A stretch of 38,049 nt of DNA from assembly GCA_035648575.1 (NCBI GenBank), contig DASRLG010000041.1, positions 1-38,049 of the forward strand. Reading direction: 5' to 3'. Below, in pieces: positions 851 to 26,582 of this stretch. Positions within the stretch are counted from its first letter, which is position 1. Each line of letters begins with the position of its first letter. The stretch comes from Candidatus Dormiibacterota bacterium (lineage in GTDB: Bacteria; Patescibacteriota; Saccharimonadia; Saccharimonadales; UBA4665). Both the position numbers and the translations under genes were made by a program. Below the pieces are notes generated by a model, which was not told the DNA's origin, did not search any database, and saw only the letters and a program-made list of their open reading frames with translations.

Positions 851-2800
851 TTATACGCTATCACCGCTGCCACTGCCCGGGTACAGCCGATTGCCGAGAT
901 CAATAGTCCCCTGCGGCTGGCTGAAGTCGCCGCCCTCTTCGTTAGCCGCGGCCTCGATGGCCCGCACCTGGTCCGGGTTAGTAGTAATCAGGCCGGTTTC
1001 GGTCGGACTGGCCACGACCTGGATGTGGACGTGGTTCTGTCCGGCGAAGAAAAGGCCCTGTCCGACCGGGAACTGGCTGAGGCGTTTACGCTCCTCGCTG
1101 GTCAGTTTGAAAACATCAGTCAACACGTCGACGGCGGTCGGCGATTGCTTCAGCAGGAACTGCATCGAAGCGTTGGCCACGATGGCCCGGCCCATGCGCG
1201 ACCCCATGAAATCTTCCACGTCTTGGCTGATAGTGGTAATGCCCAGGTTATATTTGCGGGCACGCTTAGCCAGGCTGAACAGGAAGCTGGCTGAATCCTC
1301 GTATTTCATAAGCTGCCAGGCCTCGTCGACGATCAGGATGCGGCGTTTCTGGTCGGTCTTGGTTTTGTTCCAGATGTAGTTGAGCACGATGTACATGGCG
1401 ACCGGCCGCAGCTCGTCTTCCAGGTCGCGCAGGTTGAAAACCACCAAGGGGTTGTTGATATCAACATTACTCTGCTGGGAAAATATCCCGGCGAACGTTC
1501 CGGTAGTGTACTTGCGCAACCGCTGCGCCAGTTGCGGCCCGGTGCCGCCCATGTGCAGCAACGTATCATACAGGTCGACAATCGCCGGCGGCACACCCGT
1601 ATGAGTCAACGGATCATTGGTTATCCCGGCCTTGGCATAAGTCTCGATCAGCGCCGCGTCCAGGTCGGCTTCCTCAGAAGGCGCCAGCGGCGGCCCCATC
1701 GCGGCGGCGTTAGCCCCGGCCATCTGGATCTGGGCGCCGCCCATCATCAGCCTCAGCAGGCCGTGCAGGGTTATAAGGTTGCTCCTCAGGGCGTTGTCGG
1801 CCTCCTCGGAATCAACGACTTTTGGCAGGTCAAACGGGTTGATACGGGTCGAGGAACTCAGGCTGAGCCGCACGTAAGCGCCGCCGACGGCATCGCACAT
1901 CCGCTCGTATTCATTCTCGGGGTCAATGATAAATATTTCAGTACCGAACATCATGCTACGCAAAGCTTCCAGCTTAACCGTGAAGCTCTTACCGGCACCG
2001 GACTTGGCAAAAACCACCGAATTACCGTTTTCCAGAGAGAAACGGTCGAAGATAACCAAACCGGAGTTATGCATGTTGATGCCATACAAAATGCCGGTAT
2101 CCTGACTCAAATCGGCGCTCGTAAACGGAAAGCTGGTACTCAAAGCCCCGGTGCTCATGTTGCGCCGGATCAGCAGCTGGTCGACCAGTTGCGGCACCGT
2201 GCTGTTCAGCCCCTGTTCCTGCTGCGAAGTCGCGGCCTTGCTGTAAACCAGTTGCTGGCCGAGCATCGACTCCACCTTATGGGCAACGAATTCCAGCTCT
2301 TCCATACTGCCGGCGTAGAGCGTGAAATACAGCCCGAACCGGAAGAATCGCTCCTCGCCGACCTGCAGCTTGTCGCGCATTTCTTCGGCGTCCTGGATGG
2401 CCACTTCCTTGCCGGGGTCGCGGACCCGCCCTTTCTCGGCTTCGATCTGGATGCCGGCCTCCAGCTGGGTGACTTTCTTGCGCAGATTCTCCAGCACCAC
2501 CTGGCTCTCGACAGGATAAATATACATGCTCGTATCAATGACCTCGTCGAGGTTAATCATGCTGCTCAGCCAACCGGTATAAAGCTGCCGAGGGTAGCCA
2601 TAAACGTAGTAAGTCCGAGCGTAGCGCGTGCCAAGCTGGAAGTGCGTGTTGCTGAACTCCAGCGAGCTGGGAGCTACGAAATCGCGCAGCGCCGTGATGC
2701 CTTTTTGGAATGCCGCCTGGACTTCCTGCTCTTCGCGGGCGCGCTGGGCCTGGGCCACGGCCACGGGATCCATTGGCGGCTGTTTCTTCCTGCCAAGCAT
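851..2800 (-). CDS. virB4: VirB4/TrbE-family type IV secretion ATPase
   Basis: 649-aa ORF with ATG start. Walker A FAKSGAGKS and Walker B-like RRILIVDEAW are present. The N-terminal block YARTYYVYGYPRQLYTGWL...IDTSMYIYP is typical of Gram-positive-type VirB4 proteins. Antisense ORFs on the plus strand are low-complexity. Confidence 0.9.
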   Translation of the reverse strand: MLGRKKQPPMDPVAVAQAQRAREEQEVQAAFQKGITALRDFVAPSSLEFSNTHFQLGTRYARTYYVYGYPRQLYTGWLSSMINLDEVIDTSMYIYPVESQVVLENLRKKVTQLEAGIQIEAEKGRVRDPGKEVAIQDAEEMRDKLQVGEERFFRFGLYFTLYAGSMEELEFVAHKVESMLGQQLVYSKAATSQQEQGLNSTVPQLVDQLLIRRNMSTGALSTSFPFTSADLSQDTGILYGINMHNSGLVIFDRFSLENGNSVVFAKSGAGKSFTVKLEALRSMMFGTEIFIIDPENEYERMCDAVGGAYVRLSLSSSTRINPFDLPKVVDSEEADNALRSNLITLHGLLRLMMGGAQIQMAGANAAAMGPPLAPSEEADLDAALIETYAKAGITNDPLTHTGVPPAIVDLYDTLLHMGGTGPQLAQRLRKYTTGTFAGIFSQQSNVDINNPLVVFNLRDLEDELRPVAMYIVLNYIWNKTKTDQKRRILIVDEAWQLMKYEDSASFLFSLAKRARKYNLGITTISQDVEDFMGSRMGRAIVANASMQFLLKQSPTAVDVLTDVFKLTSEERKRLSQFPVGQGLFFAGQNHVHIQVVASPTETGLITTNPDQVRAIEAAANEEGGDFSQPQGTIDLGNRLYPGSGSGDSV

Positions 2801-2837
2801 GATCAGCTACTGCCCCCGTTTATCCACCCGAGCCGTC

Positions 2838-3785
2838 TCATTGCAATTCCCTCTGCAAGTGCGCCTGCGGCGCGTTGCCCTCGCCCTTGGTAATGATATC
2901 GGCCGTCAAGTTATTGAAATCCTTAAGCTGCTGCCGGGTGGCGGTATCCGGATTATAGGTATCGTAGTACAGCTCGATCAGTTCCTGGGTATCAAGCGGC
3001 AACCCCTGGATGCTGCACTGCATCAGGCCTGACAAAACTGCCTGCACCCGGTTGCGCAGCTCGGTCTTGGCGTTTTCCAGGTCCGGCTCGTTGATGACGA
3101 CATGCTGGTCTTTTTTGTTAAATAAACCGCCTATGCCCCCCAGGAAGTTTTTGCTCTGGGTCAGTGCCTTTTGGGTATCAACAACCGGGAAAAACGGAAC
3201 CACGACGTAGAATTTTTTATCCATGATGTTAGTCTGCTGGCTAAGGTCACCGATATAGCTGATGTAGTCTTCCATGAGCAGCGCCAACAGCATGTTGTCG
3301 TGCTCGGTACGGATCTTGTCGAGTTTGTTGATGTAAGGCACCAGATCAACTTTCTGCGAGCGCATGAAGATCTGAATCGGAAAATAAAGCGAGTTCAGGA
3401 ACCCCTGGTAGCTATATTCGACAGCTTCCTGCTCCTGGCTGCTCATCAGGTCGAAGTTAATACTTTTGACCATAACTACCGAACGGAAAGAGCCGTCGTT
3501 CATGATAACGATACCGTCGCGAACCTCGGCGATTTGCAAGGAGTTCTGGGTGCTGTTGGGGTGCGGGGCTGGCTTGGGGGCCTTGTCCGCGCCGACCGTA
3601 GGCATATTGAGAGGTGCCGCCGCGTTGGCGCCACCGGGTGCCGTTACGGGGGCGATTGATTGACCTGGTATCAGAGGTGATGGCAAAGGGACGGCATTCG
3701 TCATGTCCGGTACGGGAACAGGAACGGCCGCGGCCGGCTGAGAGGGATTAGGCTGGTTTGGTGTCGTTTGTGTTGACGGATCCAT
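2838..3785 (-). CDS. T4SS-associated protein with a Pro-rich N-terminus and a VirB4-N-terminal-domain-like body, no P-loop
   Basis: ORF 2838..3821; the track start at 3821 is TTG and the first ATG is at 3785 (MDPSTQTT...). The body IAEVRDGIVIMNDGSFRSVVMVKSINFDLMSSQEQEAVEYSYQGFLNSLYFPIQIFMRSQKVDL resembles N-terminal non-ATPase domains of VirB4/TraC-type proteins as I recall them. No Walker A motif is seen. Confidence 0.7.
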   Translation of the reverse strand: MDPSTQTTPNQPNPSQPAAAVPVPVPDMTNAVPLPSPLIPGQSIAPVTAPGGANAAAPLNMPTVGADKAPKPAPHPNSTQNSLQIAEVRDGIVIMNDGSFRSVVMVKSINFDLMSSQEQEAVEYSYQGFLNSLYFPIQIFMRSQKVDLVPYINKLDKIRTEHDNMLLALLMEDYISYIGDLSQQTNIMDKKFYVVVPFFPVVDTQKALTQSKNFLGGIGGLFNKKDQHVVINEPDLENAKTELRNRVQAVLSGLMQCSIQGLPLDTQELIELYYDTYNPDTATRQQLKDFNNLTADIITKGEGNAPQAHLQRELQ

Positions 3786-3843
3786 GGTACGTTCGTTTGC
3801 CCCACCTTTATCTGTGATCAAGTATCACTCTTGCAATAACGAA

Positions 3844-5007
3844 TCAGTGTAATGAAATCATGACCTCGTTGCGCGGCTGGTTTTCGTCACCCCTGTTTTT
3901 GCGGGCCTCGCGAGCCAAAGTCGCCACATCGAAATCATCGTTCTTGGCCAAGGATAGTATAGCAGGATCACTGGTCGCTGTCACCGTATCGTTACTGGCA
4001 GCCGCCGCTGTTTGAGGGTTCGTACCGTCGCTTGGAGCCGGCATCGGAATGTCGGCTGGCGGCGCGGCCGGTTGGCTCCCCAGAGGCTGCAAGGTGCGCA
4101 AATTACCAAACGACACCTGCCGCGAACTGGCCTGCGCCGACAAGCGGGCCGCCAACGCGGCTTCATCCGGTGTTGTCTCACCGGCCACCGGCGCCGGAAT
4201 CGTCGCGCTGGTGACCATCGGTTCCGGTGGGCGCGCCATGGCCGCGGCACCCGTCCCGGCTGGCATTGCCATGGCTGGCGCGGCTGCTGCCTGCCCGTTA
4301 TTCATGAACCAGCTGTCACTTGCCGCTGCCGGCTGCTTAGCCTTAGCCGCCTCGTCCTGCCGGACATCATTAAGCTGGTCGAGCAATTGCTGCCGGCGGT
4401 TCCGGCTGGAACGGTCGATCATAGTATCAAACTGCTGGGCAATAGGGTTATTGGTCTCGTCAAGCATGTCGTCAGCCGCCGGCATATCGTCAGCGGGTAC
4501 GTCCTGGGGCATGCTGCTGATATCGATTAAACGGTCGGAGTTCATGTCGGCTACCACCGGGGAATAAACGCCGCTGCTGGCGTTTTTGGTCGCCCAACCG
4601 CGGCTGTCGATAGTATCGGCCAACGCCCGCAAGCGACTTGTGACTTCCGTCTGGCTAAGCCCGTTGGTCAGTACCCGCTCGACTTTTTTAGGCACGGTTA
4701 TGGTTACCAGTTCCTTAACGCCGCTCTGGTTCCAGATCCGCTGCCGCGGCTTAAACCAGAACCTTAACTTAGCCAACGCCCAGGTCTCCGTCGGCTGGTC
4801 CCGCCCGAACGGAAAGGCAAAAAACGCGCAGAACAACGCCGGCGGCAAAAACAGCACCAGCAAAAACGCGGCGTTCTTAGTCACCAAAATAAAACATATA
4901 TAGAACAGGAACACGGCCACCAAGGCGAAAATAAACTGCCTCAACGTCAACGGCCCCAGGATTTTGTCCTCGGCCTCGATATCCTGAATCAGTTTGTATG
5001 TTGCCAC
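3844..5007 (-). CDS. PrgI/TcpE/VirB3-like small-membrane-domain T4SS protein with a long disordered Ala/Pro-rich C-terminus
   Basis: The N-terminus YKLIQDIEAEDKILGPLTLRQFIFALVAVFLFYICFILV...LLVLFLPPALFCAFFAF has the LT.RQ motif followed by two TM helices, as in the PrgI family. It lies immediately upstream of the VirB4-type genes. Confidence 0.65.
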   Translation of the reverse strand: MATYKLIQDIEAEDKILGPLTLRQFIFALVAVFLFYICFILVTKNAAFLLVLFLPPALFCAFFAFPFGRDQPTETWALAKLRFWFKPRQRIWNQSGVKELVTITVPKKVERVLTNGLSQTEVTSRLRALADTIDSRGWATKNASSGVYSPVVADMNSDRLIDISSMPQDVPADDMPAADDMLDETNNPIAQQFDTMIDRSSRNRRQQLLDQLNDVRQDEAAKAKQPAAASDSWFMNNGQAAAAPAMAMPAGTGAAAMARPPEPMVTSATIPAPVAGETTPDEAALAARLSAQASSRQVSFGNLRTLQPLGSQPAAPPADIPMPAPSDGTNPQTAAAASNDTVTATSDPAILSLAKNDDFDVATLAREARKNRGDENQPRNEVMISLH

Positions 5008-5051: not shown

Positions 5052-6812
5052 TTACGGGCCTGTCGAACGAGCACGCTGGAGGTTCAGGCCGATGGCCACG
5101 AAGTCCTTCTTACCAAGCTGGTGTCCTGGCGTACCGGCAGTAACGGTTTGCAGGATATCCACGATCTCTTTCTTAGCAAAATCCGGTACGTTTAGGGCGT
5201 TGAAAGCGTCCCAATCAAACGAGTATGTATCCGGTGTCTCCTGAACGATGTCATTGCCCTTTTTATCATGGCCCAGGATCTTTCCACCGGGTTTAGTGAT
5301 CACCAGCACCGTATCAGCTGTTCGGCGACCGAGCAGGTCGTTAACAATCATAGCTTGAACACGCCGTGCTTCCACATGGTCATTGTCGAAAGGATTACCG
5401 ACTTTGACACCGAAATCATCATATCGCTGGAAATCATCGGCCAATTCACTAGGGTGCTTAGCTAAGTAGCGCTGTTCTGCTAATTGCCAAAGTATCAGGC
5501 CGAGGCTCGCGTCTTCTACATCCTGCCTAAGGCCAAAGCCCTTCAAAGCCTCGGTGTATTCGTAGGTCATACGGCTAGCCATGTCAATTACGGCGGTTTT
5601 GCCTAACTCGGCAACCATTTCCTGTAAGGATGCCACGTACTTTTCCAGGAATTGTTCGCCCTGGAGCCTGATCCGGTCGGCAACTACCTGATGGTCCCTG
5701 TAAATATCGTCGAGCGTGAATATATCCTCATAAGCCAGGAGAGCAACAGCCTCTTCCCTAGACAGTGAATTTTCAGTGGGGTCATGTTCCTCGCCGACAG
5801 TGTCCGGTCCGGCGGTCCAGCCTTCACGGCCCGGGGCCGGTGCCAGCATGAAGCTGGTACTGACCCGGCCGATGCTTGATAACACGGCTGGGTCAGGCTG
5901 TTCATCTGGCATTTCCAGGTGCAGGTCGCTCAACGCCTTGCCCATAGTATTAAGGTGCTTCTTCAGGCCGTCATCCCTATAGACGCGCTGGTGAGTGGCA
6001 TCGCCAGCGGCATTGTAGGTCTTGACTACGAAAGTTCGCACCGGGTGCTTATCGCCTTCAGGGCCTTCCATCAGTAGGACTTCTTCGGTCACGCGCTGGA
6101 CGCTGCCGTTAACTTTCCACGTAACGCCTTTCAGACCCAGGCCCAATCGTTCCTGGTGTTCCATGACAGTATCGAAGACTGACTTGTCGGGGTCGACACG
6201 TTCGATAGGCCTTACGTTGGGGTTGTTCCGTCTAATCCGTTCCGGAGCGTCCTGCCAACCGAAATCGGTGAACCACTCAAAGGGCGTGAATTCGTCACTC
6301 GGATGGTCAAGCCAGCCTGCCAGCGCGTCATCTTCATAACCTATAACGTCAGCCAACTCTCCATCTGGAGGAGTTACTTTGACTGTCCAGCGCCGTCCCG
6401 TGCCAGGTGTTAGAACGGTTTCCTTTTGCTCTGCGCGGCCTACGTAAGGGCCACCTCTTAATGTACTTCTAGCTCGGGGGCGCCACTTACCGGTCGGCTT
6501 GTCTTCCCTATTCGTTACGTGGTAGGCATCGTAATCGGTAAATTCATATAATTGGCCGTTGCGGTCGCGTAGCCAGAAGCCCCTTAGGTCAGGCCGGTTG
6601 TGGGCTTCGCCGTTCTCCATGACCTGTTCGGAGATTAATCTCAAGGGGTCAAATTCCCGGCGCAGCATCGAGGGCCCTATTTCCATACCCATGGTCGCGG
6701 TGGCCGGTGCTGCGGCACCGAGCTCCACTGTCGGAGGCAGGCCAACAGGTACGACTGCCGTGGTCGGGTCGGCGGCTGGTTCTGGTCGGAGTGCTAGTTC
6801 TTCTGAGGCCAT
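5052..6812 (-). CDS. Hypothetical soluble acidic protein (586 aa) embedded in the T4SS-like operon
   Basis: Long ORF with ATG start and natural amino-acid composition. I recognise no signal peptide, TM segment, P-loop or HExxH motif. It is preceded by a 156-bp AT-rich spacer carrying a consensus promoter. Confidence 0.8.
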   Translation of the reverse strand: MASEELALRPEPAADPTTAVVPVGLPPTVELGAAAPATATMGMEIGPSMLRREFDPLRLISEQVMENGEAHNRPDLRGFWLRDRNGQLYEFTDYDAYHVTNREDKPTGKWRPRARSTLRGGPYVGRAEQKETVLTPGTGRRWTVKVTPPDGELADVIGYEDDALAGWLDHPSDEFTPFEWFTDFGWQDAPERIRRNNPNVRPIERVDPDKSVFDTVMEHQERLGLGLKGVTWKVNGSVQRVTEEVLLMEGPEGDKHPVRTFVVKTYNAAGDATHQRVYRDDGLKKHLNTMGKALSDLHLEMPDEQPDPAVLSSIGRVSTSFMLAPAPGREGWTAGPDTVGEEHDPTENSLSREEAVALLAYEDIFTLDDIYRDHQVVADRIRLQGEQFLEKYVASLQEMVAELGKTAVIDMASRMTYEYTEALKGFGLRQDVEDASLGLILWQLAEQRYLAKHPSELADDFQRYDDFGVKVGNPFDNDHVEARRVQAMIVNDLLGRRTADTVLVITKPGGKILGHDKKGNDIVQETPDTYSFDWDAFNALNVPDFAKKEIVDILQTVTAGTPGHQLGKKDFVAIGLNLQRARSTGP

Positions 6813-6846
6813 GATAAGAGTTTTTGTTTATTTGTTATCAATATAG

Positions 6847-6875
6847 ATTATAGCTGATAATTCTAATATTGTCAA
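6847..6875 (-). promoter_or_regulatory. Sigma-70-type promoter, perfect consensus TTGACA-17-TATAAT (minus strand)
   Basis: The minus strand reads TTGACA (complement of 6870-6875), a 17-nt spacer, then TATAAT (complement of 6847-6852). It lies 34 nt upstream of the ATG at 6812. Confidence 0.55.
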
Positions 6876-6968
6876 CTATGTAGCTTGATAATTAAACAGG
6901 AGAGAAGAAGAACAGGTAGTTTATTCCGTGGGAGTGTCGAATTCGATAACTTATAGGTTTAGTTAGGT

Positions 6969-9900
6969 TTAGTGATTACGGGCGGCTTCGTCGGCGGCTT
7001 TCTGCGCTTCCGCGGCATCTTGCTGCTGCCTGGCCTGTTCGCGCGGGTCGTAATCTCTTGGTTTAGGCAGGGGTACGCCTTCTTTGCGGAGCTCTTCGGA
7101 CATGTCGCTCCATTCGGCCTTGGCGCCAGTGTCGTTGTAGCCGTAAGGACCGGCCTGGTTGACGATAAGGTCCTGCATGGCGCGGGCTGCGCCGGTGTAG
7201 TTGCCTTGATCGTCTTTCTCTCTGGCGATATCCATGTTGGTGAGACGGGCCGACTGTACGGCTTCGGCCTTGGCACCGGTCCAGTCGGAGGCCTTGATGC
7301 TCATAGCGTTGGACCTCGCGGCTCCCTTGCGCTTCTGGCGCTGGGCCGCGGTTAGATTAGAATTGTCGTCAAAGACAGAGTAGAACTTGCCCTTGGTGCC
7401 GGTGGCCGATCCGTCTTTGTCCACCATGACGCCATGTCCCCACCTGGTTTCCGGCCGCAGGCGGGCGCCGGCGTCGGAAGCTTTCTTGACGACGCTCTGG
7501 GCGTAGGAGGCGCCGCCGCCCTTGCCCTTGCGCGCGGTTATGGAGTTGCCGATTTCCGCCAGGTCCTGTTGTTCGGCGCGGCCGGCGTTGGCTAGGCCGA
7601 GGGCACCCATCGTCTGGACGTCGGCCCGGAACAGCTCGGGGTTGTTGCTTATATTGGCCAGGGTACCGCGAGCGGTGTGAAGGCCGGCGGCGGCCAGTTG
7701 CTCTTTTTCCCTGCCGCTGCTGCCGAGGATCTCGGTTATCTTATCGATGTCTTTCAGGGACCTTGGCGCTCTTGATACGCCTGTCTCTCTGTCTATGAAG
7801 CCTTCGTCCATAAGTTGCTTCTGGGTCTCCTCGCTGAAGCCGCGGTATGAACCGGATAACGCGCGCCAGCCTTCGTAATGCATGCCGCCCTTGGATTCTA
7901 TTTCTTGCCAGCCCTTGGTGCTGTGGTCGATCATGGCGTCGTCGATTTTGTTTTCTATGCCGGCCGCGAAACGCTTGAAGCCGGGCGTGCCCTTTTGGCC
8001 AAGCTTGCCCGGAACCATTTCGTCGGCGTCGAAGGCCCATTCAGCCAGCCGGCTGCCCATTCGGCCGACACTCCTGCCATTCTTGCCGAAGCGGCCGAAC
8101 TCGGGGTTCCAAAGGTAGCCGGCGCGGGCGCGCTGGACGCGGCCGGCAGTGTGCTCTTTGCGCTTCTTGCTCAGGTAGCCATAACCGCCTTGGGCGCGGC
8201 TATTGACCAGGTTGGCCATACCGCCCAGCGCCCCGCCGGCAAACTTGAAAGTCATAGGAATCATTAAATAGGGCGCGAAGTAGGCGATGAAGCCGATTAT
8301 TTGGCTCAGTATGTCGGAACTCTGGTTGACGGCGATAGCCGAAAATACGCGGCCAATGGCTATGAAGCCGGCGATCAGGGGGAACATGAACAAGGCTTTG
8401 CTGAAATTTTCCCACCAGAACTTAAAAGCCCTTTGGAAATAAGGATTAGGCAATATGTAAGCGGCAATCCCTAGGGGCGACAGTATGGTCAGGCCAATGA
8501 CGACGAGAGCTCTCAAGATCAGTGTCGCGAAGCCGACTACAACCGCCAGGGCGGCCATACCGACGAAAGTCAATAAGCCGAACACCCCCATGGCAACCCC
8601 GACGATCGAGGGGATTAGTACCGCGGCGCTTTGGGAGAGGCTAAGGTGGATGCTGGTATTGATACCGATGAAGGGCGCTTCTATCAGGCGCCTTATGCCA
8701 AACCCCAGGTCGTTTGTAAGCGTTATGAAAAACCTCATTAACTGCCAGGACATAGCTATAGCAATCGATGCTATCAGAAGTCGCGGCAGGACTTTACGAA
8801 TAGTATAAGCGTCCAGCATTTCCAGGCCCAAAGCCTGGGCTATCAGGACTAATATGGTTGCCAGTGCTATCAGGCCGAGTGCTATATCCCGGAAATACCC
8901 CCAAGCCGTATGGTAAGCGTCACATTGGCCGCCGGTACCGCAAGAGCCGTCAGGATTGGCAAAGATCTGGTCGGGATTATCAGAATTACCGTTGGTACCC
9001 ACCGACAATTCGCTGTTAATCGCGCCGTCCAGGGCGCTGACTATGCCTACGAGTCCCTTTACGATGCCGCAGACCAGCCAATTAAGCGGGTTAAGCCCGG
9101 CATGACAGTTTAATGACAGGTCTTGGCTAGAGCTGCCGCCCCCGCCACCGCCAACACCGCTACTGCCTGCCGCCTCGTCACTGGCCAGCTTGCCGTCGGC
9201 ACCTTTGGTGTCAGCCAGTTGAATCAGTATGCCGTCGCTCTCATAACAACCCTGCCCGTCACTATGGAGCGAAGCGCCGGTAATAATGGACGGGAAGCCG
9301 GTTGATAAGGGGTTGTCGCTTGAACTGTTCTTTATGACCAGCGTCCCGCTGGTGGGCCAGCCCGAAGCGCCGCTAATTTGGCTTTGGCAGGTTTTGTTAT
9401 AGCTTCTGCCTTTGGCAGCCATATAGGGGCCGCTGCCAGCGGTGTTTTGCGTAAAGACAATAGCCGTCTGGTCCGAAGTACTTATAGTGCCGCTATCCTG
9501 CCAGACGAAGTAATAATTGAATCCGGCCGGGTCGGAATTAGGACTCAGGGTTATTGGATCATCGGTTTCTACGCAATTATTATTGCCGCCGCCCGGCGTG
9601 GTGAATAGATGGATAGTAGCCGAAGCCGTAGCGTTTTGGTAATTGGAGCCGTCGGAGTTAGGGAAGCCGTTTATATAGTTCTTCGCCGAGCAGCTATCGC
9701 TGGAGTTTTGAAGCACGAAGCTCAGGTTATTGTCTTCCTTATTATCATAATAAACGCTACTGCCGACGCTGATGTGGCTATGGTCGATCCACTGGCCTAT
9801 CTGGGGGGACTGCTTGCCGGTTATGGTTATAGAGCCGTAATCTTTTGAGATCCCGCCGATATCGCTGCCGCAATCCGACTTTATGTCCGCGCTGGAGGAG

Positions 9901-10202
9901 CCGTCTTGGCCGTCACTCGTGAAGATGTATATGTCCGGGCAAAGGTTGCCGTTAGGTCCGTTGGTACCGTTACCGCTGAAATACACGCCCGTCGGATACT
10001 TCTTGAGGTCCACCCCGTTTTTGGTGAAGGTCAGGGTACTGTTTTGGTCGGCCGGGTCGGGGCCGACAACCGATTTGTTGCCGTTCGTGTAACGGTAAGT
10101 TCCATTGTCGGCTGAAGTTTTGCCGGGCAGCAGTGACAAGAACAGGACCATCACCAAGGGCAGAGCCATCCACCATATTTTTTTGCCGCTTAAATATTTC
10201 AT
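6969..10202 (-). CDS. VirB6/TrbL-like polytopic T4SS channel protein with a large extracellular N-domain and a large cytoplasmic C-domain (1077 aa)
   Basis: Signal peptide MKYLSGKKIWWMALPLVMVLFLSLLPGKTSA. About 400 aa of Ser/Gly/Asn/Asp-rich sequence with scattered Cys and a poly-Gly linker follows. Then come multiple TM helices (LIALATILVLIAQALG, LLIASIAIAMSWQLMRFFITL, AAVLIPSIVGVAMGVFGLLTFVGMAALAVVVGFATLIL and others). The C-terminus is a roughly 430-aa charged tail. Confidence 0.7.
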   Translation of the reverse strand: MKYLSGKKIWWMALPLVMVLFLSLLPGKTSADNGTYRYTNGNKSVVGPDPADQNSTLTFTKNGVDLKKYPTGVYFSGNGTNGPNGNLCPDIYIFTSDGQDGSSSADIKSDCGSDIGGISKDYGSITITGKQSPQIGQWIDHSHISVGSSVYYDNKEDNNLSFVLQNSSDSCSAKNYINGFPNSDGSNYQNATASATIHLFTTPGGGNNNCVETDDPITLSPNSDPAGFNYYFVWQDSGTISTSDQTAIVFTQNTAGSGPYMAAKGRSYNKTCQSQISGASGWPTSGTLVIKNSSSDNPLSTGFPSIITGASLHSDGQGCYESDGILIQLADTKGADGKLASDEAAGSSGVGGGGGGSSSQDLSLNCHAGLNPLNWLVCGIVKGLVGIVSALDGAINSELSVGTNGNSDNPDQIFANPDGSCGTGGQCDAYHTAWGYFRDIALGLIALATILVLIAQALGLEMLDAYTIRKVLPRLLIASIAIAMSWQLMRFFITLTNDLGFGIRRLIEAPFIGINTSIHLSLSQSAAVLIPSIVGVAMGVFGLLTFVGMAALAVVVGFATLILRALVVIGLTILSPLGIAAYILPNPYFQRAFKFWWENFSKALFMFPLIAGFIAIGRVFSAIAVNQSSDILSQIIGFIAYFAPYLMIPMTFKFAGGALGGMANLVNSRAQGGYGYLSKKRKEHTAGRVQRARAGYLWNPEFGRFGKNGRSVGRMGSRLAEWAFDADEMVPGKLGQKGTPGFKRFAAGIENKIDDAMIDHSTKGWQEIESKGGMHYEGWRALSGSYRGFSEETQKQLMDEGFIDRETGVSRAPRSLKDIDKITEILGSSGREKEQLAAAGLHTARGTLANISNNPELFRADVQTMGALGLANAGRAEQQDLAEIGNSITARKGKGGGASYAQSVVKKASDAGARLRPETRWGHGVMVDKDGSATGTKGKFYSVFDDNSNLTAAQRQKRKGAARSNAMSIKASDWTGAKAEAVQSARLTNMDIAREKDDQGNYTGAARAMQDLIVNQAGPYGYNDTGAKAEWSDMSEELRKEGVPLPKPRDYDPREQARQQQDAAEAQKAADEAARNH

Positions 10203-10352
10203 AGTCTAGCGGGGAGCAGCTCTATGTATTTTTGTAAACCACCGGGAACGTTTTTGTAGTCAGGCATAGTACGCTTGAAGTTATATTGCTTTAAATATAG
10301 CACATATAAAGGATTAGCGTTATCAAGAAGCCTGCCCATCCCTATCGCATGC

Positions 10353-10381
10353 TTGTCAATAGGTAACTTAAGCACTATAGT
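10353..10381 (+). promoter_or_regulatory. Candidate promoter TTGTCA-17-TATAGT for the pilin array
   Basis: TTGTCA at 10353-10358, a 17-nt spacer, TATAGT at 10376-10381. The ATG at 10391 is only 9 nt downstream and no SD is visible. Confidence 0.4.
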
Positions 10382-10390
10382 TATATAAAA

Positions 10391-11191
10391 ATGAACATTA
10401 CAACACACAAAGCTAAAAAGATAACTAAGAGGATCAGCCGATTTCTGTTCTGTTTCCTGACGGCGGCATTTGTTTTAGCGCCATCGGTAGCCTTGGCCGC
10501 GTCACAGGTTTACGGCATAGCCTGTGCCACCAGCGATGTTAAGGTCAGTAAACATTCAGCGGACTGTTCGGCCGCAGCAGATACCTTAAGACTGTATGAG
10601 ATAGGAAACAAAAGCCCACGCAAGCCCTATCCCACAGGCTATGGCATAACCGTGGTAACGGTAGACTGCGGTAAAAGCAGTCCGACTACACCCCTGTTAA
10701 ACGGGCCGGTTAAGTTTGCCTGCAAGAAATCATCAATAAAACCCACGCTCAAAGGCGCCACCATAATCCAACATGCCGCCGCGGTATCAGGCTCGGGCAG
10801 CCTGGGCGGCCAGGTTACCTGTGATCCGACGACCGATGCCACCTGCCCGGTCTGCCAAAGCAGCAACCCGCCGGCCGGTTGTGTCGATTGCGGCAGCGGT
10901 ACCTGTTCGGACCCCGCGGCTAACCCCAATACTCCTTGCGACACTAACGGCTGCGATTTAATCGGCAAGTATATCGACCCGTTCATTAATTTGTTCTCGG
11001 TGACTTTCGGTTTTATAGCCGTAGCCTCTATTATTATGGGAGGGATACAATACGCGTCCTCGACTGGCGACCCGCAAAAAGTCACGGCGGCCAAACAACG
11101 AATTACCAATACTCTGATTGCCCTGGTAGCTTACTTCTTCCTTTATGGTTTCCTGCAATTCCTGATACCGGGGGGAGCATTTAACGGATGA
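10391..11191 (+). CDS. VirB2/TrbC-like T4SS pilin paralog 1 with a long Cys-rich N-terminal extension (266 aa)
   Basis: N-terminal signal/TM segment. About 14 Cys lie in the mature region. The C-terminal pilin module is FGFIAVASIIMGGIQYASSTGDPQKVTAAKQRITNTLIALVAYFFLYGF, i.e. two TM helices flanking a G..Y.S.GD loop. Confidence 0.8.
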   Translation: MNITTHKAKKITKRISRFLFCFLTAAFVLAPSVALAASQVYGIACATSDVKVSKHSADCSAAADTLRLYEIGNKSPRKPYPTGYGITVVTVDCGKSSPTTPLLNGPVKFACKKSSIKPTLKGATIIQHAAAVSGSGSLGGQVTCDPTTDATCPVCQSSNPPAGCVDCGSGTCSDPAANPNTPCDTNGCDLIGKYIDPFINLFSVTFGFIAVASIIMGGIQYASSTGDPQKVTAAKQRITNTLIALVAYFFLYGFLQFLIPGGAFNG

Positions 11192-11198
11192 AAAACCT

Positions 11199-11585
11199 AT
11201 GTTAAGCGCACTACTATCAATAATGGCGACCGACACCTGTGACAAGTCAGGTGATTTCTTCGGCCTGCGTCCCTGGTATCATTATCTGCCGTCAACAGAC
11301 TTCTCGGGTTGCGATCTGAGTAACTTCACCTTCCTGCCAAGCTCTACCCAGGCCAGCGACGTGCCGCTGGTAATGTTGGCCGTTATCGATGACCTGTTGC
11401 GCATAGCCGGGATCGTGGCCGTGGCTTTTGTCGTCGTGGGCGCCGTCAGGTATATAACCAGCCAGGGCAATCCCGAACAGACAGCCCAGGCCCAATCAAC
11501 CGTCATTAACGCTTTAATAGGTACGGCCATCGCCGTCGCGGCCGCCACTTTCGTCGGCTTTGTCGGCAGTCGGTTGGGGGGCTAA
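11199..11585 (+). CDS. VirB2/TrbC-like T4SS pilin paralog 2
   Basis: C-terminal module IAGIVAVAFVVVGAVRYITSQGNPEQTAQAQSTVINALIGTAIAVAAATF. Upstream CDKSGDFFGLRPWYHYL...GCD region with a Cys pair. Starts 8 nt after paralog 1. Confidence 0.8.
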   Translation: MLSALLSIMATDTCDKSGDFFGLRPWYHYLPSTDFSGCDLSNFTFLPSSTQASDVPLVMLAVIDDLLRIAGIVAVAFVVVGAVRYITSQGNPEQTAQAQSTVINALIGTAIAVAAATFVGFVGSRLGG

Positions 11586-11586
11586 T

Positions 11587-11901
11587 ATGAATATGATATT
11601 GCGAATTTTGGCAGAGTCGATAAGCCCTGGTAACCTGCCTGGCGCGCCGACACCGGCGAACCCCACTCCTAACAGCCTGACCAGCGTGGCTGCTTTGCAA
11701 ACTATCCTGGGCGTGGTGTTTGGTATAATCGGTGCCCTAGCGTTGTTGATCATAACGGTATCCGGACTTCGCTATATAACCTCGGCCGGTGACCCGGAGA
11801 AAACGACCAGGGCCAGAAATGGCATCATCTACGCGCTCGTAGGATTGATTTTGGCCATATCGGCTGAAGCGATAGTAGCCTTCGGAGTCAAAAGATTATG
11901 A
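11587..11901 (+). CDS. VirB2/TrbC-like T4SS pilin paralog 3
   Basis: The track ORF starts at 11560, but the in-frame ATG at 11587 (MNMILRIL...) begins 2 nt after the previous stop. Module VFGIIGALALLIITVSGLRYITSAGDPEKTTRARNGIIYALVGLILAISAEAIV. Confidence 0.75.
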   Translation: MNMILRILAESISPGNLPGAPTPANPTPNSLTSVAALQTILGVVFGIIGALALLIITVSGLRYITSAGDPEKTTRARNGIIYALVGLILAISAEAIVAFGVKRL

Positions 11902-12329
11902 TAAAAAGACTGCTTATGGCCGTAGCCCTGCTTGTCCTGTGCCTGTTCGCGACTCCGCGCGTAGCCTCGGCTTACGATATTTTCGGCGGCGTGGACTGCA
12001 CAAGCGCTACGAATTCAAGCTCCGCGGTCTGTAAAGGCCAGCCGGCCACCGACCCGACTACCGGCAAAGCTGCCGACCCCATAGGCGGCCCCAACGGCCT
12101 GCTGGCCAAGATCACGAATATCGTGGCTTACGCCGGCGGTGCCGCCGCAGTTATCATAGTGATTGTCAGCGCCTTGCGCTTCGTTACTTCCGGCAGTGAT
12201 GTCAGTACCAATTCCCGCACCGACGCCGATGTCGAAAACGCCCGGCGCAGCCTTGGCGGCGCCTTAATCGGCCTAGCCATCATAGTCCTGGCCCGCGCGT
12301 TCATATTATTTGTATTGAATAAAGTGTGA
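11898..12329 (+). CDS. VirB2/TrbC-like T4SS pilin paralog 4
   Basis: ATGA 4-nt overlap with paralog 3. Signal peptide MIKRLLMAVALLVLCLFATPRVASA and a Cys pair. Module AAAVIIVIVSALRFVTSGSDVSTNSRTDADVENARRSLGGALIGLAIIVLA. Confidence 0.8.
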   Translation: MIKRLLMAVALLVLCLFATPRVASAYDIFGGVDCTSATNSSSAVCKGQPATDPTTGKAADPIGGPNGLLAKITNIVAYAGGAAAVIIVIVSALRFVTSGSDVSTNSRTDADVENARRSLGGALIGLAIIVLARAFILFVLNKV

Positions 12330-12339
12330 AGGAGAAACC

Positions 12340-12786
12340 GTGAAACGAACCTTATTAAGCATAGTAGCTTCGCTGGCAATAGTCATGATGCCGCTACCGG
12401 TGTTGGCGGTAGGAGCTTCCTCGTCGTCCACGGGTTGCGGCACTGCTTCTACCCCGAAGACCCAGGTACTGAACGGCTTGGGTGAAACCGGCAGTAATTG
12501 TAGTGATACCGGCGTCGGTAATGCCATCGCCGCTGGCGTAAATATCTTGAGCCTGGTAGTCGGCGTGGCCGCGGTCGTAATGGTCATCCTGGGCGGCTTC
12601 AAATATATAACTTCCGGGGGCGAAGCCAGTAAGGTCTCCAACGCCAAGAACAGCCTGGTTTACGCCTTGGTCGGTTTGTTTATCGCGGCTTTGGCACAAC
12701 TCTTAGTGCATTTCGTACTTGTCCAGTCGAGCCAGGCGGCCTGTCCGCCCGGCAGCAAAGATGCCGCTTGCAAGCCGGCCCACTAG
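12340..12786 (+). CDS. VirB2/TrbC-like T4SS pilin paralog 5
   Basis: GTG start preceded by GAAGGAG with a 5-nt spacing. Signal peptide present. Module VVGVAAVVMVILGGFKYITSGGEASKVSNAKNSLVYALVGLFIAALAQLLVHFVL, plus a C-terminal Cys pair. Confidence 0.8.
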   Translation: MKRTLLSIVASLAIVMMPLPVLAVGASSSSTGCGTASTPKTQVLNGLGETGSNCSDTGVGNAIAAGVNILSLVVGVAAVVMVILGGFKYITSGGEASKVSNAKNSLVYALVGLFIAALAQLLVHFVLVQSSQAACPPGSKDAACKPAH

Positions 12787-12812
12787 CCCTAACCGATAAG
12801 ATGAAAGGCGAC

Positions 12813-12841
12813 TTGATTCCGCTAACGCCTTGTAGTATAAG
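12813..12841 (+). promoter_or_regulatory. Candidate internal promoter TTGATT-17-TATAAG ahead of pilin paralog 6
   Basis: TTGATT at 12813-12818, a 17-nt spacer, TATAAG at 12836-12841, inside the 86-nt gap between paralogs 5 and 6. Confidence 0.35.
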
Positions 12842-12872
12842 TTAAGTAGACGTAAAGAAAGGTATACATAAC

Positions 12873-13337
12873 ATGATCCAAAAAATTAAAAGATATATGT
12901 ACATGCTCGCCGGGACCATAATGCTGGCTTTGCCCGGAGTGGTATCAACCGCGGTCGCGACCGCGACACCGTCCTCAACCTGTAACCAGATCAGTACTGG
13001 CATTGCCAACGGCATTAACCAAGCGACCGGCACAAGCAGCAGCGGCGCTAACGCCGTTGACTGTTCGTCAAGCAGCGTTAACGGCAATACGATCGGTAAA
13101 GCCGCCAAAGGCCTAGTTAACGTTTTCTCCATAATAGTCGGTGTCGTAGCCGTGGTCATGATTATCTACGGCGGCTTCCGCTACATCACCTCCGGTGGCG
13201 ATAGCGGCCGGGTCGGTAATGCCAAGAACAGCCTGATTTACGCTATTGTCGGACTGGTCATAGTGGCGCTGGCACAGCTTATCGTGCACTTCGTCCTTGG
13301 GCAGACCACCAGTATCCAGTCCAATGTTACTGGGTGA
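12873..13337 (+). CDS. VirB2/TrbC-like T4SS pilin paralog 6
   Basis: Signal peptide and a Cys pair. Module IVGVVAVVMIIYGGFRYITSGGDSGRVGNAKNSLIYAIVGLVIVALAQLIVHFVL is nearly identical in pattern to paralog 5. Confidence 0.8.
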   Translation: MIQKIKRYMYMLAGTIMLALPGVVSTAVATATPSSTCNQISTGIANGINQATGTSSSGANAVDCSSSSVNGNTIGKAAKGLVNVFSIIVGVVAVVMIIYGGFRYITSGGDSGRVGNAKNSLIYAIVGLVIVALAQLIVHFVLGQTTSIQSNVTG

Positions 13338-14792: not shown

Positions 14793-16256
14793 ATGGAAGA
14801 GGTAACACGAAAAATCGTAAAACTTATCAGTTCGGGCTGGGTATTCGTATTGGCCTTGCTGATCTTCGTGGCTGAAACGGCCTATCTGGCACTGACGAGC
14901 CGTTTCCCCATGGCTTTCGACGAGTCTTACCACTTCAGTTTGATAAAGTTTTTCAGCCATCGTCTTAATCCGATAGTCACCAGCCAGGCCAGCGGCACTT
15001 ACGGTCTCGGGGCGATCGTCCAAAATCCGTCTTTCCTATATCACTACCTGTTGAGCTTTCCCTATCGGTTCATAGCTTTATTCACCAATAGTCCTGAAGT
15101 AGAGGCCACCAGCCTGCGTTTCGTGAATATCGCTTTGGCCTTGGCCAGTTTGATCATTATGCGTAAGCTCTTGCGGCTGATGAATTTATCGGATGCCTTG
15201 GTCAATATAGTAATGCTGGTTTTCGCGCTAACGCCGATGGTCGTGCTGCTGTCGGCGCAGATTAATTATGACAATTTGCTGATTCTGGCAGTCACCTTGT
15301 GTCTCTACGAGACGGTCACGTTCAGCAAGAAACTCGACCGGAAAATCTTTGACGCGAAAGGCTTGCTGACGCTGGCGTGCTTATGTTTGTTCACTAGCGT
15401 GGTGAAGTTCGTTTTCCTGCCGATCTTCTTGGCCATAACGGCTTTCGTGGGCTTCAAGCTGGCTTTGTACCGGCCGCCCGGAGGGACCGGCCTAATAGCC
15501 GTCGCCAAGAAAAGCTTTGCCGATATCAGCAAATCCACCAAGCTGTTCTTGCTGGCAGCCGGCCTCCTGGGCAGCTTCTTTTTCGTCAGGCTTTACGGCG
15601 TCAACCTGGTGAAATATCACAATCCGGCACCCCAATGCAACCAGGTCCTGAACATCCAGGACTGCACGAGGTACTATGCCTGGGACAGCAACTATAACAC
15701 CCGGCAACAGGAGCTGGCCCACCCGACGACCAACATGATGAACGTGCCGCAATATAACGGCTACTGGCTACTGGTAAACGGCTTCGGCCTTTTTGGGGCC
15801 ATCATGCCGTTGCTGGGTCCTTATTATATCTCCCCTACCTTTTGCCTGATCGTTATAATCCTCTGGGCCGCGGCAATCGCCTGCACCATAGTGAACTTCA
15901 AAAAAGTTCGGAAGGGGAATAAAAACCTATTAACGGTAATTGGGATAAGCCTGGTTTACGTATTAGCCATCTGGGGAAGAAACTACCACGATTACTTGCA
16001 GCTGGGCAAACCGGTAGCTATAGATGGCCGGTATTTAGTTCCGGTACTCATATATTTTTACGCTTTGTTGGGGCTGGGCACCCAGTACGCGCTGGCGGAC
16101 AGGCGGCCGCGTCAATTAATTATTAAGCTGGCTTTGGTAGCGCTAACGGTTTTTTCATTCATATATTACGGCGGATTCGTGCAGTACATCAGCCACATCA
16201 GCCCGTCTTACGGCCGGATAAGCCCGTCCAACAACTTCTTCATAGGCAAAGAATAA
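14793..16256 (+). CDS. Polytopic membrane protein, GT-C-fold glycosyltransferase-like (ArnT/PMT-like)
   Basis: 487 aa with about 12 predicted hydrophobic helices. The FDESYHF motif after TM1 resembles the first-loop DE motif of GT-C enzymes. The assignment is by pattern only. Confidence 0.55.
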   Translation: MEEVTRKIVKLISSGWVFVLALLIFVAETAYLALTSRFPMAFDESYHFSLIKFFSHRLNPIVTSQASGTYGLGAIVQNPSFLYHYLLSFPYRFIALFTNSPEVEATSLRFVNIALALASLIIMRKLLRLMNLSDALVNIVMLVFALTPMVVLLSAQINYDNLLILAVTLCLYETVTFSKKLDRKIFDAKGLLTLACLCLFTSVVKFVFLPIFLAITAFVGFKLALYRPPGGTGLIAVAKKSFADISKSTKLFLLAAGLLGSFFFVRLYGVNLVKYHNPAPQCNQVLNIQDCTRYYAWDSNYNTRQQELAHPTTNMMNVPQYNGYWLLVNGFGLFGAIMPLLGPYYISPTFCLIVIILWAAAIACTIVNFKKVRKGNKNLLTVIGISLVYVLAIWGRNYHDYLQLGKPVAIDGRYLVPVLIYFYALLGLGTQYALADRRPRQLIIKLALVALTVFSFIYYGGFVQYISHISPSYGRISPSNNFFIGKE

Positions 16257-19381: not shown

Positions 19382-20683
19382 ATGCTAAAGACGTTTAAAC
19401 ACTACTACTTGAAAAGATCAAAACCATTCCAATACGCAAGTGCCGGCCTAACCATTCTATTAGTGGCTGCCCTGGGGACTTTGATATTAAATATCTCCCG
19501 CGCCGCCAGCCCCAATGTCGCCGTTAGTGCCACCAGCGGGACGCTAGCTAACGGCACTAACGTTAACCAATCCTGTTCCGGAGCCAGCGGCAGTAGCTGC
19601 GTGGTCTTTGGGCAGCCGCCGCCAATGGACGGTAATGTCGCTCTTTCGTTAATGAGCGCGGGCACGCCTTTTGCGCCAACCAGTTTTTGGAACACTATTT
19701 TGCCCAATAATACCCCCGTGAACCCGAACAACGCGGCCTATCTTAACGTCATTGCCTATAATCTATGCGGCGACCAGACAGCAGTACCCGAAACGCCGCC
19801 AACTCCCTGCCCGACATCGACACACTATGGTTTTTTGAATAGTTCGGCGTATAGCGCTCCGCTTTACGTCGTGCCGGCCAACCAGCCCTATGTACCGGTG
19901 ACGGACTATTGCGGTAACAATGCCACCTTTGTCAACGCGCTGGCCGGCGGCGTGCCTGTACCCACCGATGCTCATGGTGCTACCGGCAGTGACAGCGAAG
20001 TTGAGATCTATCAGCCCTCGACCGACAAATACTGGGATTTCTGGCGGTTTTCAAACGTCAATGGCAACTGGCAGGCCTGTTGGGGCGGTGTGATCAACAA
20101 TGTCTCGACCAGCAACGGTGTTTTTCCTAACAACCTAGGCGCGACGGCCACTAGCTTACCGTTAATTGGCGCTGATCCTAGAATTGAGGAGCTGCAAGCC
20201 GGACAAATTAACCATGTAATAGGCCTAACGATCGGCGACGCGTTCACTGCTGATTTAGCAAAGAACGTTATTCCAGCTAATGCCCCCGGGGCAACTGTCG
20301 GGTTTTCTTCACCGGCTACGCGGACGGATGGCGGCAGTACCGATCCTTTGGCAATACCCGAGGGGCTCCGTTTCAGGCTGCCCGCCAGTTTCGACCTAGC
20401 CGGCTATGCTTCCACGCACCCTCTCACTCCTGTTGCTATGGCCATTGCCGTAGCCGCCCAAAAGTACGGGTTTGTCGTAAACGACTCTTGCCCCCAGTCC
20501 TGCATAGGGATGCGTGTCGGTGATCCGACTGCTTATACTACGGCCGGCTTGCCCGACCCATACAGTAACGGACCGGGGGTAGGAGGAGTTGGTAATACTG
20601 GTCTGTTTGCGGGCGTTAACCCCGGCCAGATTATGAAGAACTTTCCGTGGGACCAATTAGAAGCATTGCCGTTCAATTATTAA
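19382..20683 (+). CDS. Secreted or membrane-anchored hypothetical protein (433 aa)
   Basis: N-terminal anchor/signal [29 protein letters not shown]. The remainder is Asn/Gly/Pro-rich. No catalytic motif recognised. Confidence 0.75.
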   Translation: MLKTFKHYYLKRSKPFQYASAGLTILLVAALGTLILNISRAASPNVAVSATSGTLANGTNVNQSCSGASGSSCVVFGQPPPMDGNVALSLMSAGTPFAPTSFWNTILPNNTPVNPNNAAYLNVIAYNLCGDQTAVPETPPTPCPTSTHYGFLNSSAYSAPLYVVPANQPYVPVTDYCGNNATFVNALAGGVPVPTDAHGATGSDSEVEIYQPSTDKYWDFWRFSNVNGNWQACWGGVINNVSTSNGVFPNNLGATATSLPLIGADPRIEELQAGQINHVIGLTIGDAFTADLAKNVIPANAPGATVGFSSPATRTDGGSTDPLAIPEGLRFRLPASFDLAGYASTHPLTPVAMAIAVAAQKYGFVVNDSCPQSCIGMRVGDPTAYTTAGLPDPYSNGPGVGGVGNTGLFAGVNPGQIMKNFPWDQLEALPFNY

Positions 20684-25733: not shown

Positions 25734-26582
25734 ATGGATGAGAAGGATTTGGGCAAACGGCTGCAGGCGGCGCGCCAAACTGCCGGTTTGACGCAGCAAA
25801 AACTGTGCCAGCACGCCAACCTGAGCTTCTCCACCCTTACCAAGATCGAACGTGGTGCCATCAAGTCGCCGTCAATTTTCACTATCCAGTCCATAGCTAC
25901 AGCTCTAGGGGTCAGCCTTGACGAGCTGGTCGGCCAAGCCAGCCTGAGCAGCAGCCGCCGCCAGCTGAGCAAGACCAAGACCGGTGTCAGCTTCATCTAC
26001 TTCGATGTTAACGGCTGTCTTATTAACTCGCCGCAGCGGGCCATGGCCAGGTTGTCGCAGGCCACCGGAGCGCCTTCCGACATCGTAGAAATGGCCTTCT
26101 GGCACTACAACGACGAAGTTTGCCGCGGCACCATGAGCACCAGCGACTTTAACGCCAAACTGGCCAAGCGTTTGGATATCGACGAAGTCAAATGGCAGGA
26201 CTACTACCTGGAAATGGTCGAGCCGATAACCCAGATGCAGGAATTGCTGAAGTGGGCCGCCGAGAACTACAAAGTTGGGCTGATGACCAACATCATGCCC
26301 GGCTTCCTGAGCTCCCTGCGGCGCAACGGCCAGGTGCCGGAAATGCCCTACGACGCCGTTGTCGACTCTTCAGAGGTGGCGACCATCAAGCCGGAAGTCA
26401 AAATGTATGAAATCGCCCAGGAACGGGCCGGCTGCCCGCCCTCGGAAATCCTGCTGGTCGATGATTCAAAAGTTAACTTGATGGCCGCCGAGAAGCTTGG
26501 CTGGCACGTGCTCTGGTTCGACGAAGTCCACCCCGAGGAATCGGTTGAACGGGTTCGCGCCGCGCTTGAACCGGCCGCTTAA
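25734..26582 (+). CDS. XRE-family helix-turn-helix domain fused to a HAD-superfamily hydrolase-like domain
   Basis: N-terminus LGKRLQAARQTAGLTQQKLCQHANLSFSTLTKIERG (Cro/C1 HTH). C-terminal HAD-like motifs FIYFDVNGCLI (motif I variant), GLMTN (II), K...LLVDDSKVNLMAA (III/IV). Confidence 0.8.
   Translation: MDEKDLGKRLQAARQTAGLTQQKLCQHANLSFSTLTKIERGAIKSPSIFTIQSIATALGVSLDELVGQASLSSSRRQLSKTKTGVSFIYFDVNGCLINSPQRAMARLSQATGAPSDIVEMAFWHYNDEVCRGTMSTSDFNAKLAKRLDIDEVKWQDYYLEMVEPITQMQELLKWAAENYKVGLMTNIMPGFLSSLRRNGQVPEMPYDAVVDSSEVATIKPEVKMYEIAQERAGCPPSEILLVDDSKVNLMAAEKLGWHVLWFDEVHPEESVERVRAALEPAA

Follow-up and report, generated by a model that had tools for sequence, protein, structure and literature searches.

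The stretch of DNA considered here (the window; 38,049 nucleotides on the forward strand of contig DASRLG010000041.1, assembly GCA_035648575.1, from a bacterium placed by GTDB within the Saccharimonadales) carries a type IV secretion system (T4SS) operon in which one gene, called X in what follows, encodes a soluble protein of no described family. Gene X (5052..6812, minus strand) starts with ATG and encodes 586 amino acids followed by a stop codon, as judged from the open reading frame (ORF), its translation and its orthologues. Six T4SS_pilin genes (10391-13337, plus strand) lie to one side. Divergent from these run, in order, a VirB6/TrbL_3-like gene directly upstream of X (6969..10202, minus strand; 1077 amino acids with nine predicted transmembrane (TM) segments), X itself, a VirB3-like PrgI gene (3844..5007, minus strand) that begins 44 nt past the X stop codon and is probably co-transcribed with X, a TrsD/TraC-like gene (2838..3821, minus strand; 327 amino acids) and the gene for the VirB4 ATPase (851..2800, minus strand). 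VirB4 is followed by a large protein that extends beyond the end of the window. Taken together, the evidence set out below firmly supports the view that X is an expressed-looking, selected, T4SS-linked accessory gene, specific to its lineage, that belongs to a new orphan family and occupies a variable slot of the operon.

The block is the known monoderm-type T4SS of the Patescibacteria (McLean 2020; Wang 2023; Quinonero-Coronel 2025). These systems are related to the monoderm MPF_FATA conjugation systems and contain arrays of VirB2-like pilins, and they have neither a relaxase nor a linked coupling protein (PMC12102498). In the Saccharibacteria the T4SS is essential for the epibiotic growth of Southlakia epibionticum (Wang et al. 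2023, PMC10633639); its substrates are unknown (PMC12102498; PMC12857230). In 80 species-representative genomes, nearly all of them labelled Candidatus Saccharibacteria or Saccharimonadales, VirB4 shares 83-90% identity with the VirB4 protein of the window. Since the window also encodes ValRS, TsaD, a Mur ligase, GroEL and four tRNAs, it is a piece of chromosome.

Sequence properties of protein X

Protein X has a mass of 65.5 kDa and an isoelectric point of 4.94, with 97 aspartate and glutamate residues against 67 lysines and arginines, and contains no cysteine. Its 19-residue Kyte-Doolittle mean peaks at 1.16, so that no hydrophobic segment is present; neither a TM helix nor a signal peptide nor a P-loop was found, and a motif scan showed Walker A, LPXTG, lipobox and twin-arginine motifs all to be absent. 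An earlier note on this DNA had described an acidic, soluble 586-residue protein without a signal peptide, TM helix or nucleotide-binding loop, and the description holds for the ORF at 5052-6812 on the minus strand. It had also called the protein family-less, in keeping with which scans of X and its relatives against Pfam and NCBIfam gave zero matches, those against PHROGs and PADLOC none, and a profile search against PDB sequences nothing better than an E value of 0.72. Profile and structure searches, of the kind that the note had proposed, linked X to no housekeeping enzyme. Its statement that all flanking T4SS genes encode membrane proteins or ATPases was mistaken in one case, the TrsD/TraC-like neighbour (2838-3821), which has neither a TM segment nor an ATPase domain.

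Several known T4SS functions were considered for X and found no support in its sequence. X shows neither the Walker A motif nor the Pfam or NCBIfam ATPase match that would be expected of a VirD4/TcpA coupling protein or a VirB4/VirB11 ATPase. A MOB relaxase domain was matched in Pfam and NCBIfam neither by X nor by 27 members of its family, and the PDB sequence search was likewise empty. Both the Sec signal peptide and the LPXTG anchor of a PrgB-like adhesin are absent. The features of VirB8-like proteins, PrgL and TraM are also missing, there being no TM segment and, by Foldseek against the PDB, no NTF2 fold; the proposal that X is a VirB8 analogue was rejected on these grounds. A detached C-terminal domain of VirB6 was rejected as well, as X shows no similarity to VirB6 and the length of VirB6 shows no compensation, and so was the insertion of a mobile element, as neither repeats nor an integrase were found and the GC content of 52.7% falls inside the range of the window.

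Promoter and upstream region

The 156-nt gap upstream of X (6813-6968) contains, as the earlier note had reported, a perfect sigma-70-type promoter on the coding strand (6847..6875, minus strand), in which a -35 hexamer TTGACA (6875-6870) and a -10 hexamer TATAAT (6852-6847), separated by a 17-nt spacer, match the consensus at 12 of 12 positions. The interval 5052-6875 singled out in that note is thus the gene plus its promoter, 6875 being the first base of the -35 hexamer. No other exact match exists in the window, and 100 dinucleotide-preserving shuffles of it produced none. From the end of the -10 hexamer to the ATG there are 34 nt (6813..6846, minus strand), a segment that takes in the predicted start site; its leader is rich in A, and no Shine-Dalgarno match was found there.

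The promoter is conserved in orthologous loci. Both hexamers and the GC preceding the -10 box are invariant in the three closest loci compared (L004, L003 and L001), whose flanking intergenic DNA is not conserved, and 9-11 of the 12 positions are kept in more distant loci of the family: TTGACT-17-TATAAT in L085, where X is 37% identical, TTGCAA-17-TGTATAAT in L018, TTGACA-17-TACAAT in L089 (25% identity) and TTGACA-17-TAAGCT in L090. No terminator was found in the 44-nt gap between the X stop codon and PrgI; the promoter therefore probably transcribes PrgI, the TrsD-like gene, VirB4 and downstream genes as well. Judged by the quality of the promoter alone, X may, as the earlier note had supposed, be highly expressed.

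The upstream gap also holds the 10-bp palindrome TCGAATTCGA (6937..6946, no strand assigned), expected 0.03 times per window, which the earlier note had put forward as a possible operator. The palindrome is present where it was reported; the operator idea was rejected, as the element is missing from the locus of the 91%-identical orthologue and from other loci, and it is not counted here as a functional part. Separately, three TGATAA/TTATCA hexamers (6812-6817, 6835-6840 and 6855-6860) surround the -10 box, the predicted start site and the ATG of X. They are kept in the closest relatives only, and in L001 their place, directly after the -10 box, is taken by the palindrome CTAGTACTAG. In the divergent region that separates the pilin array from the VirB6-like gene (10203-10390), promoter matches reach just 9-10 of 12 positions (TTGTCA-17-TATAGT on the plus strand and TTGTAA-18-TATAGT on the minus strand), weaker than that of X.

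Predicted structure

A full-length AlphaFold2 model of X, made from a 28-sequence alignment, had a mean predicted local distance difference test score (pLDDT) of 71.8 and a predicted template-modelling score (pTM) of 0.51; a model of the C-domain alone, from 21 diverse sequences, reached 86.1 and 0.83. The models suggest four regions. Residues 1-49 (6666..6812, minus strand) are a predicted disordered N-terminus with 8 prolines, 10 alanines and 5 threonines (pLDDT below 50), which varies among relatives and includes insertions and deletions. Residues 50-303 (5904..6665, minus strand) form a beta-rich N-domain (pLDDT 75-90) from which, in the model, a long basic beta-hairpin extends at about residues 88-147; the tip of this hairpin is basic and its sequence varies across the wider family. 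A disordered linker follows (residues 304-345; 5778..5903, minus strand; pLDDT 30-53) and leads to the C-domain (residues 346-586; 5055..5777, minus strand), which the model shows as helical with two beta-hairpins and which defines the family.

The conserved motifs of the C-domain are LLSYxDV, S(I/L)SWxLWxLAxQRY..HPxE, DPF and EARRKQxEIxD. It ends in an amphipathic basic helix (residues 568-582; 5067..5111, minus strand) that contains FVAIGLNLQRAR and has the family consensus hGRLLRR, and in nearly all members of the family this helix is C-terminal or close to the C-terminus.

Foldseek comparison of the full model with the PDB and BFVD gave no match at E<=1e-3, the top TM-scores being below 0.15, and the confident C-domain model gave none at that threshold against the PDB. 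On these models X thus appears to have no solved relative in the PDB or BFVD, and a novel fold is not claimed. Weak Foldseek hits to lysenin, pneumolysin and FlgH had suggested that the beta-hairpin might form a pore; this was rejected, as the probabilities of these hits were below 0.13 and the hairpin is highly charged and not amphipathic.

The X family

Five close relatives of X, at 50-91% identity, were found in a collection of 5.8 billion proteins, and 1.84 billion representatives, searched exhaustively with phmmer, gave 35 clusters at E<=1e-3, mostly of 550-620 amino acids. A scan of JGI metagenomes with a narrower X alignment gave only three loci, so the family is rare. By these sequence searches X founds a rare orphan family, whose full-length members lie, as far as seen, in Saccharimonadales T4SS loci. 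The T4SS literature describes the pilin array (formerly the "effector cluster") and the core genes; in the literature searched, neither an X-like protein nor a variable slot between VirB6 and PrgI is mentioned, and the X family is undescribed.

Pairwise ratios of nonsynonymous to synonymous substitution (dN/dS) between X and four orthologues were 0.09-0.17, and X is therefore under purifying selection. The M(A)SEEL start of the protein is kept in orthologues. These ratios, together with the conservation of start and promoter in orthologues down to 25-37% identity, confirm that gene and promoter are real. X nevertheless evolves quickly compared with its operon: its dN exceeds that of VirB4 by a factor of 15-25 and, except at the shortest distance, is also above that of VirB6 and PrgI. 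More generally, VirB4 has a dN/dS of about 0.01-0.02, VirB6, PrgI and X of the same operon diverge 10-25 times faster, and there is a steep gradient of rates, lowest in the cytoplasmic ATPase and rising towards the membrane and accessory parts (851-3821 of the window and loci L005-L084).

Not all of the family is full-length. About 10 of the 35 clusters share just the core of the C-domain (about residues 345-500), which is followed by a variant RHLGWE motif and mostly by a related LxxLGxxLR helix, and their N-terminal regions differ. These paralogues are encoded outside T4SS loci: P0022 (993 amino acids) after infB-rbfA, P0031 (705 amino acids) after parA-parB and P0015 among unknown genes. 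The genes for C-domain proteins, some longer and some shorter, in these three settings lie at 8001-10982 of L087, 7001-9118 of L091 and 2699-3922 of L092. Three paralogues contain a weak FHA-like stretch (E about 0.007, under the Pfam cut-off).

A variable slot between VirB6 and PrgI

Where the context of a full-length family member could be read, its gene is the next one after the VirB6-like gene, and on contigs that extend far enough it precedes PrgI. This holds for the window and for L004, L003, L001/L094, L085/86, L095, L090, L089 and L016; in L018, which has no VirB6, the X homologue is directly upstream of PrgI. The linkage to the T4SS that the earlier note had seen in one operon thus extends to 10 distinct lineages with a full-length member, all at the VirB6/PrgI position.

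The junction was surveyed in GTDB species loci fetched through VirB4 (L005-L084), where it falls roughly 2-4 kb upstream of the VirB4 match; 58 of these loci contain both VirB6 and PrgI. In 27 of the 58 no gene stands between the two (gap 0-148 nt), and in the remaining 31 there are one to several ORFs of 130-771 amino acids. Among the surveyed species, HMMER, jackhmmer and hhalign found an X homologue only in L016, one of the 58, and in L018. The gene in L016 (3638-5620) is spread over four consecutive ORFs, either a pseudogene or the product of long-read frameshift errors. A profile of X showed no relation to any other slot protein by jackhmmer or hhalign (probabilities <1%), and all-against-all BLASTP left nearly every one of the other occupants a singleton. 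Apart from an AdoHcy hydrolase and a PfkB kinase, which are encoded on the opposite strand in L006 and L016, none of them matches Pfam. The T4SS locus of S. epibionticum ML1 has no X; in the equivalent stretch it has a non-essential NTF2-like protein together with a second VirB6-like gene.

The earlier note had offered a novel machine component as one possibility and had advised comparing the presence of X with that of the T4SS across relatives, naming absence of the gene from otherwise syntenic loci as a refutation. That comparison shows X to be lacking from most otherwise syntenic Saccharimonadales loci, S. epibionticum included; X is therefore not a core T4SS component, and the notion of a general part of the machine did not survive. 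On present sequence comparisons, X is instead a lineage-specific accessory in a variable slot.

Proteins that share this position also share certain features. A set of 22 same-strand, TM-less slot proteins from other species, mutually unrelated in sequence, was compared with a background of 423 other TM-less ORFs from the same loci. The last 20 residues of the slot proteins carry a mean net charge of +3.05 against -0.17 for the background, and their first 40 residues contain 6.0 prolines against 3.05 (Mann-Whitney p=2e-7 in each case). X shows both traits, with a charge of +3 over its last 20 residues and 8 prolines within the first 49. Cysteine is scarce: in 28 same-strand slot proteins, a wider set than the 22, there are 6 cysteines in 10,708 residues (0.06%), compared with 0.14% in the X family and 0.85% in other proteins of the window. 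Of 32 filled loci, 13, including the four close X-family loci L001-L004, have a promoter match of at least 10 of 12 positions just upstream of the slot gene, as against 3.5% of random 250-nt windows; loci with an empty slot resemble the background.

Comparison with known systems

The X-Tfes of Xanthomonas are interbacterial T4SS effectors in which a conserved C-terminal XVIPCD domain is joined to variable N-terminal regions. The positively charged C-terminal signals of VirE2, VirF and VirE3, substrates of the Agrobacterium VirB/D4 system, form a loosely defined motif. The X-Tfes study of Souza et al. 2015 is cited in PMC7427843. Like the X-Tfes, the X family is linked to a T4SS and combines a conserved C-terminal module with varying N-terminal regions, a modular pattern seen across metagenomes; the analogy would be a functional one only. 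Unlike the X-Tfes, X and its relatives match no Pfam family, hence no XVIPCD model if the library has one, and X has no recognisable toxin domain and, within the 38 kb window, no immunity gene. Its locus also has no VirD4 coupling protein and is of the monoderm type rather than the diderm VirB/D4 type. X resembles VirE2, VirF and VirE3 in being soluble, in having no Sec signal and in its C-terminal tail of +3, a value close to the +3.05 that other slot proteins average, but it shows no homology to them and its basic residues sit in the structured terminal helix of a folded domain. The resemblance of X to XVIPCD-type and Agrobacterium-type substrates thus goes no further than analogy.

A further comparison is with SEML1_0012 of Southlakia epibionticum ML1, which belongs to the only genetically dissected Saccharibacteria T4SS locus. 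Like X, this non-essential protein of 278 amino acids is a non-core component encoded just downstream of the pilin-proximal VirB6-like gene. Unlike X, it has a twin-arginine translocation (TAT) signal sequence and a VirB8-like NTF2 fold, a second VirB6-like gene precedes PrgI in its locus, and there is no similarity between the two proteins. Also like X, the class-specific MPF_FATA accessory proteins, among them PrgF, TrsJ and Gbs1347, are poorly conserved, have no known role and are encoded beside virB4 in systems of the Gram-positive type, and some MPF_FATA accessory proteins have been detected in Patescibacteria (PMC12102498); X differs in matching no conjugation model in Pfam or NCBIfam, the two libraries compared. 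By sequence, X is best described as a T4SS-associated accessory or candidate cargo gene of a new family.

Other features of the window

Outside the T4SS operon, the window encodes a 963-amino-acid protein (22139-25030, minus strand) with a large insertion that splits its GDSL lipase/acylhydrolase domain, and a fusion of HTH_3 with a HAD hydrolase (25734-26582, plus strand). Three ORFs of 433-487 amino acids without a Pfam match (14793-16256, 19382-20683 and 20824-22170) lie among the tRNA-Ser and tRNA-Arg genes.

Possible functions of protein X

Our best guess, favoured on circumstantial features of the sequence, is that X is an accessory of the T4SS that is exported as a substrate or host-interaction factor, a tentative reading to which we give somewhat less than even chances. 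In outline, X would be made in the cytoplasm together with the translocon, the strong internal promoter driving the expression of both. The C-domain with its basic amphipathic helix would then dock X on the cytoplasmic face of the machine, at VirB4/TrsD or at the hydrophilic C-terminal region of VirB6, and X would be exported as a T4SS substrate or host-interaction factor. The rapid turnover of X between lineages would in that case reflect adaptation to different host bacteria. The presence of a conserved C-terminal module on variable N-terminal regions recalls, by analogy, effector families with a common translocation domain. Extended to the position as a whole, the proposal becomes that the junction is a dedicated cargo slot, in which every lineage has a rapidly replaced, promoter-equipped, cysteine-free and TM-less protein of its own, with a proline-rich N-terminus and a basic C-terminus, and that these proteins are exported by the essential T4SS into or onto the host; this wider proposal we consider unlikely.

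A number of observations weigh against export. No enzymatic or toxin domain was found in X, and no immunity-like gene was found adjacent to it. Basic C-terminal tails and low cysteine content are not specific, and the background for the tail and proline statistics was a greedy ORF set rather than curated genes. VirB4, the TrsD-like protein and GroEL of the window are also cysteine-poor, which makes cysteine depletion a weak feature. The basic helix is not terminal in P0022 and P0038, where more sequence lies beyond it; being the last helix of a folded domain and non-terminal in these two proteins, hGRLLRR need not be a free C-terminal signal. The FHA-like stretches and the parAB and infB-rbfA neighbours of the paralogues fit a cytoplasmic role better.

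Such a role is at the centre of a possible but doubtful alternative, that X is a cytoplasmic adaptor, assembly factor or regulator acting on VirB4/TrsD or on the C-terminal region of VirB6 and is never exported, other lineages using non-homologous analogues or none. The lack of a signal peptide and of a TM segment, the probable co-transcription with the cytoplasmic ATPase module and the place of the terminal helix within a confidently folded domain all agree with it, as does the recurrence of the C-domain beside a weak FHA-like domain and in housekeeping neighbourhoods. The absence of a linked coupling protein (PMC12102498) would moreover leave room for an alternative receptor or adaptor. From an integral adaptor, however, one would expect the degree of conservation seen in its partners, and no gene of the operon evolves faster than X; most syntenic loci lack it, and the S. 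epibionticum system works without it. It is less easy still to see X as a passenger unrelated to secretion, for which the VirB6-PrgI junction would be a permissive break point that collects genes and whose promoter would mainly re-initiate transcription of PrgI-VirB4. The AdoHcy hydrolase and PfkB kinase on the opposite strand at the junction in L006 and L016 would suit this account, as would the mutual unrelatedness of the slot contents and the distance of the domain-only paralogues from any T4SS genes. Against it, 10 independent full-length lineages share the exact position down to 25% identity, which insertion by pure chance would not preserve, and the common composition of the same-strand slot proteins departs from background. 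We regard a passenger as quite improbable.

Very little probability is given to a fourth account, in which X is a nucleic-acid pilot or escort whose arginine- and lysine-rich hairpin binds DNA or RNA moved through the T4SS, in place of a relaxase. Its appeal lies in the absence of a relaxase from this T4SS, in the predicted beta-hairpin of 25-28 residues with an arginine-rich tip (RPRARSTLRGGPYxGR) that is invariant in close relatives, and in a preprint (10.64898/2026.06.21.733656) which proposes that Patescibacteria take up host RNA and which places T4SS pili at the interface. Yet the sequence of the tip is unconserved across the wider family and its pLDDT is low, X is acidic overall, Foldseek recovered no nucleic-acid-binding fold, and most species with the same T4SS carry no X gene.

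Implications

Should the proteins of the slot prove to be passengers of the cytoplasm, X would amount merely to a catalogue entry for a new orphan family. As matters stand, X and the variable slot provide concrete candidates for T4SS cargo or for tuning the machine to its host, and these candidates are testable with the genetic tools that exist for cultivated Saccharibacteria. If the slot is indeed one for cargo, the Patescibacteria T4SS would have in X, and in the proteins found at the same position in other lineages, its first candidate substrates and host-range determinants.

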